In this document: piece by piece, positions 5,693 through 37,172 of the stretch
How positions within the stretch are numbered: position 1 is the first letter of the stretch
Layout: the number at the start of each line of letters is the position of its first letter
Source: Okamejei kenojei
Taxonomy: Eukaryota
Length of the DNA stretch: 64,000 nt
Assembly (NCBI GenBank): GCA_035221665.1
Contig: CM069159.1
Coordinates: forward strand, 34,472,001-34,536,000
Reading direction: 5' to 3'
The notes under the pieces: model-generated
What the model saw: the letters and a program-made list of their open reading frames with translations, nothing else
Database searches by the model: none
What the model was told of the DNA's origin: nothing
Translations under genes and position numbers: made by a program

Positions 5693-6184
5693 AAACTCAA
5701 CACAAAGGCCAAATTGCTTTCATTCAATATTGTGTGCTTTTCTACAGAATTTCCATACAAGAGGTCTCTGGGCCAATTTGTTTCTGCACTAGTTTCCAAC
5801 CCAACCCACCACCCTGAAATACAGTTTGAGGAAGTTATTTTAGGAGATATTTCATTGGTCACAATAGGCAATAACATGGAGGAAAGGCAAGGCTTATAGA
5901 AAAAGGACTTTTGTACAGCAAACGCAATTTACTTTGAAAACAAATACAGGAAATAGCAGAAACTGCAGCGACTTGGGCGGGACAGTGGCTCAGTGGTAGA
6001 GCTACTGCCTCACAATGCCAGAGACCCAGACCCAGAGATGCCAGAGCATACGTCCTTTGAACAGAGATCTTTGTGGAACATTATTGGTCTGTATGGGGAT
6101 GTCAGCGGTTATGGGGAGAAGGCAGGAGAATGGGGTTGAGGGGGAAACATAAATCAACCGTAATTGTGTGGCAGAGTAGACCTA

Positions 6185-6630
6185 GTTTAGTTTAGTTTAC
6201 AGATACAGCGCGAATACAGGCCCTTTGGCCCATCGAGTCCGCACAGACCAGCGATTCCCGCACATTCTTCTTTTTGCGTATGGCGTGCACAGCCTAAAGT
6301 TGTAGGACAATGTGTTCTATTTGATCTTATTTGATTGTGCACGCCAGGTTGATTGCATTCATCAAAACAGGTGAAGGTTGCAATCTCCCACCCCACCGCA
6401 CATTAAACACTACACACACACACGAGGGACAATTTTTTACATTTACTACAAGCCAATTAACGTACAAACTTGGAGTGTGGGAGGAAACCGAAGATCTCGG
6501 AGAAAACCCACGCAGGTCACGAGGCGATGTACAAACTCCATACAGACAGCACCGGTAGTCAGGATCGAACCTGGGTCTCTGGCGCTGTAAGAGGTGTAAG
6601 GCACGAACTCTACCGTTGTGCCACCGTGGC
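6185..6630 (-). mobile_element. HE1/V-SINE (tRNA-derived) carrying a nested retroposon
   Basis: tRNA-like head, V-domain (gtgggttttctccgagatcttcggtttcctcccacactccaa) and (TAAAC)n tail. Confidence 0.9.
6267..6394 (-). mobile_element. Short HDV-ribozyme-headed retroposon, copy 1 (ribozyme decayed)
   Basis: Inserted in an HE1 SINE with TSD ccgcacatt (6258-6266 and 6396-6404). 5' GGGGTGGGAGATTGCAACCTTCAC, 10-nt deletion, catalytic C changed to T, GAA tail. Homologous to 37030-37172. Confidence 0.85.
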
Positions 6631-7004
6631 CTAATTCTGCTCCCATCACATGAACTTATGAGGACTGATGATAGGGTGAGAGAGGGAACAAAGGCATGAT
6701 AGATATCATCCTCTGTTGGTGATGCTCTATCCTCCTGCTCTCCCTTCTGGCAATAAGCAAGGTACCATTGACCAAGTACTCCCTTTCTCCTGGTGACTCC
6801 GGCGTGATGAATAGGCACCGCACTGATTCTTCGTAGAAGTGCTCACGAGGTTTCCCAAAATAAATGTTCCTTAGGTGTTGATGGATCCATGATAAAGTGT
6901 CGCAGAAATTCCCCTGTGCCTTCCAACATTTCTCTAACACACCTCCAAAAGTAATTGAAGAGCAGAAATGTGAAGCAACTTGAAGCAGCAGGTTGTTCAT
7001 TCTG

Positions 7005-7381
7005 AAGATTGTTAAGGGCTTGGACACGCTAGAGGCAGGAAACATGTTCCCGATGTTGGGGGAGTCCAGAACCAGGGGCCACAGTTTAAGAATAAGGAGT
7101 AAGCCATTTAGAACGGAGACGAGGAAACATTTTTTCTCACTGAGAGTGGTGAGTCTGTGGAATTCTCTGCCTTAGAAGGCAGTGGAGGCAGGTTCTCTGG
7201 ATGCTTTCAAGAGAGAGCTAGATAGGGCTCTTAAAAATAGCGGAGTCAGGGGATAAGGGGAAAAGGCAGGAACAGAGTACTGATTGGGGATGATCAGCCA
7301 TGATCACATTGAATGGCGGTGCTGTCTCGAAGGGCCAAATGGCCTACTCCTGCACCTATTGTCTATTGTCTATTGTCTATT
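7005..7381 (+). mobile_element. CR1 LINE 3' end
   Basis: KIVKGLDTLEAGNMFPMLGESRTRGHSLRI... and a (TATTGTC)n tail. Confidence 0.9.
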
Positions 7382-7659
7382 AATCAGTCGGCCACCGTGG
7401 GGAGAGGATGATGAGTCAAGTAGCTCCCAGCAAAATGTTGTGCAAACCCTATAGCTGAGTATGGGCGAGCAACTTGCATAGAGATCTTTAACCACCACAT
7501 GTGCAGCTGTCCTTACCTGGGTTTCAACTCTTGTTCTAAAGATAGGAAGAACTGCATTCATAGGAAGAACATTCATACTGCGCCTTTCACATCGCTTACC
7601 GTAAACAGGAAGCTATGTCCTTTGTGGCATGATCCCTCAAACACCACTCGGATAATCAA

Positions 7660-8470
7660 CATTGGGTTTTGCTAATGGTGGGATAAAATTGGCCAGGCGT
7701 GCACAGTTCTTCTGCAAAATAGTGGTGTGAGGTCTGGGAATGCTAATGAGACTTTGGTTTAACATCGTAACAGTGTCATAGAGTCATACTGTCTGGAAAC
7801 AGGCCTTTCGGCTCAACCTGCCCACAAGACCAACATGTCCCACCTACACTAGTCCCACTGGCCTGCATTTGACCCATATCCCTCCAAACCTGTCCTATCC
7901 ATGTACCTGTCTAAATGTTCCTTAAACATTGCAATAGTACCTGCCTCAACTACCTCCTCCAGCAGCTCGTTCCATACACCCACCGCCCTTTGTATGAAAA
8001 AGTTACTCCTCAGGTTCCTATTAAATATTTCCCCCCTCACCTGAATCCTAATTAAAATGGCGGCACAGTGGCGCAGAGATGGAGTTGCTGCCTTACAGCG
8101 CCAGAGACCCGAGTTTAATCCTAACCTAAAGTGCAGTCTTTATAGAATTTGCATGTTCTCCCTGCGACCGAGTGGGTTTTCTCCAGGTGCTCCAGTTTCC
8201 TCCACACTACAAAGAGGTACAGGTTTGTAGATTAATTGGTTTCTGTAAATTGTAAATTGTCCCTAGTGTGTAAGATAGTGCTAGTGTAGGGGTGATCGCC
8301 GGTAGGCGCGGACTTGATGGGGAGAAGGGCCTGTTTCCACGCTGTATCACTAACGTCGAAAGAAAATCCCATCTGACAGACAGCACTCCCTACAGTACAG
8401 CACTCCTTTCGCACTATTCTAGGGTGGCAGCTGAGGTGTCTGTGCCCCAAGAATTTGATCCTTGAAGCTT
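7660..8470 (-). mobile_element. Old DeuSINE (SacSINE1-like) remnant split by CR1 (7775-8041, minus) and HE1 SINE (8058-8352, plus)
   Basis: Fragments ttcttctgcaaaatagtg...ggtttaacatc and catctgacagacagcactccctacagtacagcactcc resemble the Deu domain. The nested CR1 and HE1 are clear; the DeuSINE call is weaker. Confidence 0.5.
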
Positions 8471-19954: not shown

Positions 19955-20282
19955 CTTTAGACTTTAGAGAGATACAATGATACAAAGAAACGGAGAGATA
20001 CAGCTGTGAAAACAGGCCCTTCGGCCCATCAAGTCCGCGCTGACCAGCGATCACCCCGTACATACACTACACACTAGGGAGAATTTACAATTCTTTCAAA
20101 GCTGATTAGTCTACAAACTTGTACGTCTTTCGAGTGTGGCGGGAAACCCAGAGCACCTGTAGAAAACCCCATGCAGCCAGAGGGAGAATGTGCAAACTCT
20201 GTACAGACAGCACTCATAGTCAGCATCAAACTTAGGTCCCTGACGCTGTGAGGCAGCTACTCTACCACTGCATCACTGTGCT
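19955..20282 (-). mobile_element. HE1 SINE
   Basis: tRNA head, V-domain and tail. Confidence 0.85.
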
Positions 20283-36452: not shown

Positions 36453-37029
36453 AACTTGTTTTTCATCAGTGCTGATGTTTAACTGCCACAGGGTGGGTGA
36501 GGGGATGTTGCAAACTGATGCCTGGCCATTTGTGAAGAGGTGAAAATTGCATGGTGATACTGAGATTTACAGCCATGACAAGCTGAACGGGACGTGAATC
36601 CTCGCTGAGCTCAGAGATCCAACTTCCCATCATTTACCATTTGAACCATGTTCAGGGTGTTTAATATTCAAAGCTCGAAATGGCAAACATGTCCACACAT
36701 CTCCTCCTCCTCGCAAAAGATAGACCTATGAATGTCCGGATTAATTTAGCTCAATCTGTCCTTTAGCATTCTTTCATCTGTGCAAAACAAGCTGTTCCCT
36801 CCAGCCACCTGTCACTGATAGTTTATACTGTCTGTTGCCCAGCTGTATATTAACCATGGTCTTGCTGCCCTGGCGACTAATGATATCAAAGCAAAAACAG
36901 CTTGGTTCCATTGCTCTTGCTCATGATACCCCCTCTTCCATCTTCCTTTCTTCTGCTCTGTCTCCTGTTTCTTTATAAAGCTTGCTGGTCCCCCTAACTC
37001 AAATCCAATGGCTGGATCTTGGCATAGTT

Positions 37030-37172
37030 TTTCTTCTTCTGGTGTATGGCGTGCACAGCCTAAAGTTGGAGGACAACTTGTTCTATTTGATCTTATTTGA
37101 TTGTGCACGCCGGGTTGATTGCATTCGTCGAAACAGGGCGGACCACGTGAAGGTTGCAATCTCCCCCCCCCC
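37030..37172 (-). mobile_element. Short HDV-ribozyme-headed retroposon, copy 2
   Basis: G-run 5' end, ribozyme fold, 10-bp stem GGCGTGCACA/TGTGCACGCC and (GAA)n tail; short flanking repeat catag. Confidence 0.85.
37117..37170 (-). ncRNA. Minimal HDV-like (CPEB3-type) self-cleaving ribozyme
   Basis: Minus strand G(n)-A-GATTGCA-ACC-TTCACGT-GGT-CCGCCCT-G-TTTCGA-CGAA-TGCAATC maps to P1, J1/2, P2, P3, L3, P3', P1', P1.1, P4, J4/2 and P2'. Catalytic C at 37127. Confidence 0.8.

Follow-up and report, generated by a model that had tools for sequence, protein, structure and literature searches.

On the minus strand of the 64,000-nt stretch of Okamejei kenojei DNA analysed here (GCA_035221665.1, contig CM069159.1, 34,472,001 to 34,536,000; hereafter the window), positions 6394-6267 hold a 128-nt copy of a small mobile element, flanked by 9-bp target-site duplications and nested in an older tRNA-type SINE. 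Its parts, together with the host and a second copy in the window, are as follows.

6181..6632, minus strand: host tRNA-type SINE, split by the element; A box near 6623-6613 and B box near 6570-6562
6396..6404, no strand assigned: target-site duplication on the element's 5' side; empty site in other host copies
6395..6395, minus strand: extra T between duplication and G1, likely untemplated; extras of 1-4 nt in 22 of 61 copies
6267..6394, minus strand: entire element copy of 128 nt, in subfamily A, lacking 10 nt of the core
6388..6394, minus strand: P1 5' strand GGGGTGG; G1, at 6394, is the predicted cleavage site
6371..6385, minus strand: P2 5' strand (6385-6379), P3 5' strand (6378-6376) and first 5 nt of L3 (6375-6371)
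6371/6370, minus strand: deletion junction
6351..6370, minus strand: P1' remnant, P1.1 dinucleotide, 5-nt loop replacing P4, J4/2, and P2 3' strand (6357-6351)
6361, minus strand: predicted catalytic position in J4/2, C to T
6324..6350, minus strand: remainder of the LINE-derived 5' UTR, with the long-range stem's 5' arm at 6345-6336
6311..6323, minus strand: junction of the two LINE-derived halves, a short duplication plus filler, with approximate boundaries set by sequence comparison
6267..6310, minus strand: LINE-derived 3' part, comprising last ORF codons and stop (6296-6294), 3' UTR and GAA-repeat tail
6291-6282, minus strand: 3' arm of the long-range stem, in the 3' UTR
6258..6266, no strand assigned: target-site duplication on the element's 3' side; empty site in other host copies
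37027..37170, minus strand: second window copy, core undeleted, G1 at 37170

An earlier note on this DNA described a copy bounded by 9-bp direct repeats within a SINE, beginning after one extra base and able to pair with its fellow copy, and this description is accurate. The repeats lie at 6258-6266 and 6396-6404; the start reads T (6395), GGGGTGG (6394-6388), GA and GATTGCA on the minus strand; and GGGGTGG pairs at 7/7 positions (G1.U, one U.G) with the 3' strand of P1 in the copy at 37.1 kb. The latter carries a pure G run as its own P1 5' strand (G.G at pair 5) and an ill-defined duplication. The two align with an E of 1e-44, differing by the 10-nt gap and scattered changes. The multicopy host has pol III A- and B-box motifs, and we take it to be HE1-like. 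In the window, seven further copies of the host SINE can be aligned through the site and lack the insert, most having the target motif once, so the element is a later insertion into the SINE. The claim that the element is the younger of the two is further borne out by divergence, element copies lying 3-5% from the commonest letter while eight host copies share 81% pairwise identity. Nesting in this SINE is untypical of the family, given that a narrow test, both flanks matching one host copy, was positive in 0/87 element copies.

The 10-nt loss that had been placed in P3'/P1' is real, though it takes in the final 2 nt of L3 as well as the whole of P3' and 5 nt of P1'; because of it, the copy is unable to fold the ribozyme core. 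The C-to-T change at the catalytic position was ascribed to CpG decay, and this fits, since in subfamily A C>T is commoner at CpG (43/314 cells) than at non-CpG cells (16/1020); the C of a CpG three bases earlier is also T. Another claim, that the inserted cDNA is a full copy of a ribozyme-processed RNA, survives in part: a 5' end at G1 is supported across the family, but a copy with its core deleted is not a faithful one. Ribozyme processing at G1 is something that one copy alone is incapable of showing, and this one contributes a single junction; we infer such processing from the predicted fold and the position of the junctions. The same deletion junction has 39 matches in the genome, about 0.4% of the intact count. 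Inspection of all 39 found one without a deletion, one rearranged and two mutual duplicates, the remainder being divided among subfamily A, subfamily B (13 matches) and another, separate family of derivatives. We considered a dead master as the source of the deletion and ruled it out: the deletion recurs across three lineages, so it was not inherited from a ribozyme-dead source and does not count against processing. The copy at 6258-6404 would be a dead end, in which P3'/P1' were lost during or after insertion and the catalytic C decayed.

The family is large, as the earlier note had suspected from two copies in one window. Exact patterns of 19-21 nt match the genome 10,537 (P2-L3), 9,310 (3' end) and 11,295 (P1-P3, with GGGGTGG) times, and reversed-pattern controls 0 times. 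Copy number is therefore at least 11,295, and a rough estimate is about 19,800 (near 20,000), because 48/90 copies picked by the 3' pattern also carry the 5' 21-mer; the average is about 0.5 copies per 64 kb, so that two in the window is above average. Those 90 copies are the first of 100 matches listed for the 3' 21-mer, all of them within 15 Mb of the start of one contig, and removal of three segmental duplicates left 87. They form two main subfamilies, A and B (40/87 and 47/87), with divergences from the commonest letter of 5.2% and 3.3%. On the question raised earlier of whether the consensus P1 is GGGGCGG or GGGGTGG, the counts favour the latter. An ancestral GGGGCGG was rejected, with 507 matches against 11,295 and CpG decay in these copies of 5-14%. 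The eight of the 507 variants inspected are distributed over both subfamilies; such variants seem clustered near contig ends, and GC-biased conversion is possible.

The 5' ends of these copies are strikingly uniform. Among the 87 chosen by the 3' 21-mer, 81 reach G1 with at least 6/7 P1 bases matched (62 match all seven and 19 match six), while three match two or fewer and look truncated. There are no shared letters upstream of G1, and thus neither shared upstream sequence nor random 5' truncation, either of which would have spoken against a defined end. Once seven copies without a clean start were omitted, the G run was exactly four in 61/80 copies. Duplications were called in 61/80 copies as opposed to 4/397 mismatched flank pairs, with lengths centred on 11-13, or about 12 bp; in 39 of the 61 the duplication directly adjoins the G run, and in 22 it is separated from the run by 1-4 bases, among which are substituted Gs. 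These duplications, the match between the window copies and the silence of the reversed controls together exclude chance. Upstream of G1, mild biases at -1, -11 and -13 fit a target preference. Likewise, in contigs from eight public runs (organisms A-F), the element exits at G1 or G1-1 into unrelated flanks (agreement 0.34-0.47). T is enriched at -1 (46/80, p 3e-4), both inside duplications and as the extra base, and where the duplication abuts the G run it is found in 28/39 copies (p 2e-5). This T may stem from an A that was added to the cDNA without a template and annealed to the target, and some templates could have retained a -1 base.

A uniform end need not be a processed end. A fixed transcription start would yield the same uniformity, and the G1 end might represent initiation from an internal promoter in the LINE 5' UTR, with the fold secondary or inactive in the small element. 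The T enriched at -1 would suit such a start, and Pr77 of L1Tc/NARTc is described as both promoter and ribozyme (PMC4035085). However, five LINE families with different P1 and P2 sequences, considered below, all start at G1 of the same fold, and pol III A- and B-box motifs are unmatched in two element copies. Further, a cap-derived extra G is known for L1, but here the extra G is rare: where the target offers no G, exactly four Gs are found in 19/21 copies and five in one. An internal promoter is accordingly an unlikely account, on the order of one chance in eight, and an end set by ribozyme cleavage is preferred.

The origin of the element is revealed by a LINE of the same genome. By sequence comparison, the element is the 5' end joined to the 3' end of a single-ORF APE/RT LINE of about 3.05 kb, whose 5' UTR matches the element's first ~75 nt and whose last codons, stop, 3' UTR and tail match its last ~45 nt; both ends match this one family at 85-95%. 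The route to the partner led from a degraded APE/RT element among PF14529 matches through several related families to the one sharing both ends. A 5' part and a 3' part from the same LINE, and independent amplification with duplications, make the element a bipartite non-autonomous LINE derivative. One partner copy of about 3.05 kb (L281) has a duplication that ends at G1, and of eight partner copies with an in-line 5' part, five begin several bases inside the fold. At P1 pair 5, A (U-A) is found in 10/10 LINE copies showing the P1 3' strand, and mostly G (U.G) in small copies. Another partner copy (L248:4756-4824) has its 5' ~70 nt inverted, as twin priming would give. A subfamily B copy sits in the ORF start of a partner copy (L292, ~500-640), so that subfamily B was active after that LINE inserted. 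Near 1430-1570 of five other loci (L341-L345) lies a second bipartite derivative of the same LINE, independently deleted and with a different junction; it starts at the G1 position, has duplications and shows at least five matches at up to one mismatch.

No intact ORF exists among 20 partner copies, the longest frame being 414 aa, and RVT_1 was detected in one of them (L285). An intact 1019-aa homologue (P0001, on a 3.3-kb contig) has 75% identity to the partner protein, carries APE and RT and aligns along the copies; the next homologues are at 40-56% identity, and the named ones are mostly from arthropods. RNase H is absent from the ~1000-aa APE+RT homologues. The protein's N-terminal APE motif and C-terminal zinc knuckle suggest Vingi. 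The architecture, in part seen through these homologues, is a single ORF with APE and RT, about 3 kb, lacking RNase H, which is that given for Vingi (PMC13708176). The partner is therefore likely a Vingi, an assignment made by architecture and by these motifs.

Might an ordinary tRNA-derived pol III SINE, or a small element mobilised by an unrelated LINE (RTE, Nimb, CR1), account for these copies, with the fold incidental? A family of this genome that is presumably Nimb/I-like also has a GAA-repeat end, and RTE LINEs likewise produce bipartite elements (PMC5786205). Yet the window contains no tRNA gene and the element no A or B box, its head being LINE 5' UTR; the 30 top PF14529 loci and 20 further LINE loci share no sequence with it, and both its ends match one other LINE family. 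Such an origin is very improbable, and derivation from both ends of the likely Vingi partner stands. The top PF14529 family itself (two ORFs, GAA tail), which we take to be the Nimb/I-like one, was tried as the partner and rejected, having no sequence in common with the element. A young two-ORF LINE at L181:2295-7330 (minus-strand coordinates), presumably also Nimb/I-like, has an open 1276-aa frame and a GAA-repeat tail and is unrelated to the element.

At the family level, the head of the element is predicted to form a nested double pseudoknot of the HDV type, with P1, P2, P3, P1.1, a G1.U pair and a 7-nt L3. A strict HDV descriptor matches 35/90 sampled small copies and the 5' ends of ten LINE loci from five families among 70 scanned; it matches neither window copy, and 0 matches arose in 20 shuffles of the window. 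Four further Vingi-like families are headed by an HDV-like fold (5' ends of L203-L207, L211-L219, L223/L243/L244 and L231-L236), each with its own P1 and P2 sequences and a longer P4 region. In nine natural sequences from five LINE families, 100% of P1 and P3 cells are paired, 7/12 pairs change on both sides, and 0/500 shuffles reach the observed paired fraction or covariation score, although the pairing is partly built in because the nine were selected by the descriptor. What is informative is that the fold arises from differing sequences and yet at one shared position, the first base of the element. Rfam at gathering level finds nothing in the window; its HDV model (RF02682) matches an intact copy weakly, below gathering (16 bits against 44, E 2.2), starting exactly at G1. 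When the 54-nt domain is folded as a nested structure, its energy does not surpass that of shuffles (z -0.04 and 0.20, the pseudoknot lying outside the MFE model), and the long-range stem between an arm derived from the LINE 5' end and an arm in the 3' UTR has z -4.0 and -2.1. The second P1.1 pair is non-standard in 7/9 sequences, and P1.1 with one non-standard pair is described as compatible with fast cleavage (PMC13635239; PMC4836649). In the element, P4 is reduced to 5 nt, and this remnant could form a small hairpin that traps the catalytic C.

A fold may of course matter for reasons other than catalysis. Were it a nuclease-resistant cap, host transcripts would be trimmed back to the pseudoknot and cleavage would be unneeded, and the stability of an HDV-like fold is reported to govern the insertion efficiency of R2 templates (PMC11331408). 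Against this, the catalytic C in J4/2 is the commonest letter in both subfamilies (35/40 and 44/47; 79/87 overall), and a C-N-R-A-type linker is found in 5/5 families, though the descriptor requires that linker. Core-deleted copies, moreover, are scattered events and not a spreading subfamily. A cap is thus improbable too, marginally more so than an internal promoter, and the conserved catalytic position is more in keeping with self-cleavage before G1.

Given these findings, the element is best regarded as a non-coding retroposon that combines both ends of a LINE, likely a Vingi, and whose RNA is likely freed from longer host transcripts by a predicted HDV-like ribozyme cutting before G1, a reading to which we assign a probability of roughly 0.75. 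The bipartite origin, the 5' end at G1, the duplications of about 12 bp, the GAA-repeat tail and fold covariation across LINE families are directly supported. Self-cleavage before G1 and the steps around it are proposed. Under this reading, read-through from a host promoter would transcribe a copy, and ribozyme cleavage would release a structured RNA with a 5'-OH. The LINE protein would bind the 3' end of this RNA and reverse transcribe it at a nick, the short template being copied to its end nearly always. For the final joining to the target, the cDNA would use G microhomology or a small number of bases added without a template. The scheme parallels that of NARTc/SIDER (PMC4035085) and of R2 SIDEs (PMC3414825), and the element's junctions resemble those reported for R2 elements with self-cleaving 5' ends (PMC3774820). 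Points against it are the Rfam result at gathering level, the unremarkable nested-fold energy, the 5-nt P4 remnant with its potential trapping hairpin, the non-standard P1.1 pair, the mismatch of both window copies to the descriptor, the partner copies that begin inside the fold and the T at -1.

The element belongs to the SIDE/NARTc type, in which its vertebrate host, its abundance and the near absence of P4 are unusual. Both bipartite derivatives of Vingi and SIDEs headed by a ribozyme are already known. NARTc, RIME and SIDER, the trypanosomatid derivatives of L1Tc/Ingi with the Pr77 ribozyme, are likewise non-coding and internally deleted with both LINE ends kept, and share with the element an HDV-like ribozyme at +1, dispersed copies and an Ingi/Vingi-side parent (PMC4035085). 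Unlike them, the element is found in a vertebrate, is about 140 nt long, has an estimated 20,000 copies and nearly lacks P4, and its ribozyme is predicted whereas the activity of Pr77 is described as demonstrated in the same source. R2 SIDEs of Drosophila similarly join a 5' ribozyme to the parent's 3' end and have variable 5' junctions, but they are rare and rDNA-specific, while insertions of the element are spread over the genome, carry duplications and trace to a parent of APE type (PMC3414825). The Vingi-1_EE derivatives of hedgehog are also bipartite, internally deleted Vingi elements in a vertebrate (cited in PMC5786205). Minimal theta ribozymes, HDV-like and also without P4, have the catalytic C in J4/2 and cleave before G1, but are reported to be nearly 99% phage-confined and tied to tRNA 3' ends, whereas the element's ribozyme would head an animal retroposon (PMC10879173).

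In its G1.U pair, L3, P1.1 dinucleotide and J4/2 the element agrees with the Rfam consensus for CPEB3, and the mammalian CPEB3 ribozyme (RF00622) likewise has G1.U, the same L3, a P1.1 of one C-G plus U.U, and the J4/2 of subfamily A (PMC4836649), but the element has other P1 and P2 sequences, no P4 and no RF00622 match up to an E of 10. Among 59 candidates scored, RF00622 gave 30 matches over the cut-off, the best at 66.8 bits. CPEB3-like heads of one sister LINE family were seen at L346:1501-1574 (plus strand) and also at L349, L350, L351, L355 and L356. Among the 12 top loci, three (L346, L349 and L351) run into an apparent Vingi-like APE start, one of the three with same-strand matches to the homologue of the partner protein. 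Near 1501-1580 of L347, L348, L352, L354 and L357 lies another CPEB3-like variant, which continues into a different sequence downstream; several of its copies are inserted in remnants of other LINEs, and it could represent one more short derivative family. The mammalian CPEB3 ribozyme may descend from an element of the CPEB3-headed sister family's kind. The larger proposal, that 7,000-8,000 intact P4-less ribozymes were spread by a Vingi-derived mini-retroposon, that the Vingi clade is ribozyme-headed and that the CPEB3 ribozyme is a domesticated Vingi 5' end, is tentative when taken as a whole and falls somewhat short of an even bet; the number of intact cores is an extrapolation from 35/90 sampled copies to about 20,000. 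Some metazoan SINEs are reported to use HDV-like ribozymes (PMC6765202), and the relevant passage of PMC5786205 omits Vingi from the ribozyme-bearing clades. Among the papers listed by the literature searches, none treated this family or derived the CPEB3 ribozyme from Vingi. HDV-like ribozymes and Vingi came up together in one review, with ribozyme passages that concern R2; Ruminski 2011 and Kojima 2011 may describe Vingi ribozymes, and the supplement of PMC5786205 may list related elements.

The implications extend beyond a single small element. Thousands of junctions provide a natural map of where the transposing RNA starts, and they place that start at the predicted ribozyme cut site. If active, the ribozyme would count among the smallest HDV-like ribozymes that occur naturally in an animal, and its copies a genome-wide source of potential transcript cleavage sites. 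The family also bears on a question left open in PMC5786205, namely why bipartite elements arise from RTE, Ingi, Vingi and R2 alone, because a ribozyme head needs no promoter. Finally, the element marks minimal 5' and 3' signals for Vingi, a clade described as in development for gene insertion (PMC13708176).
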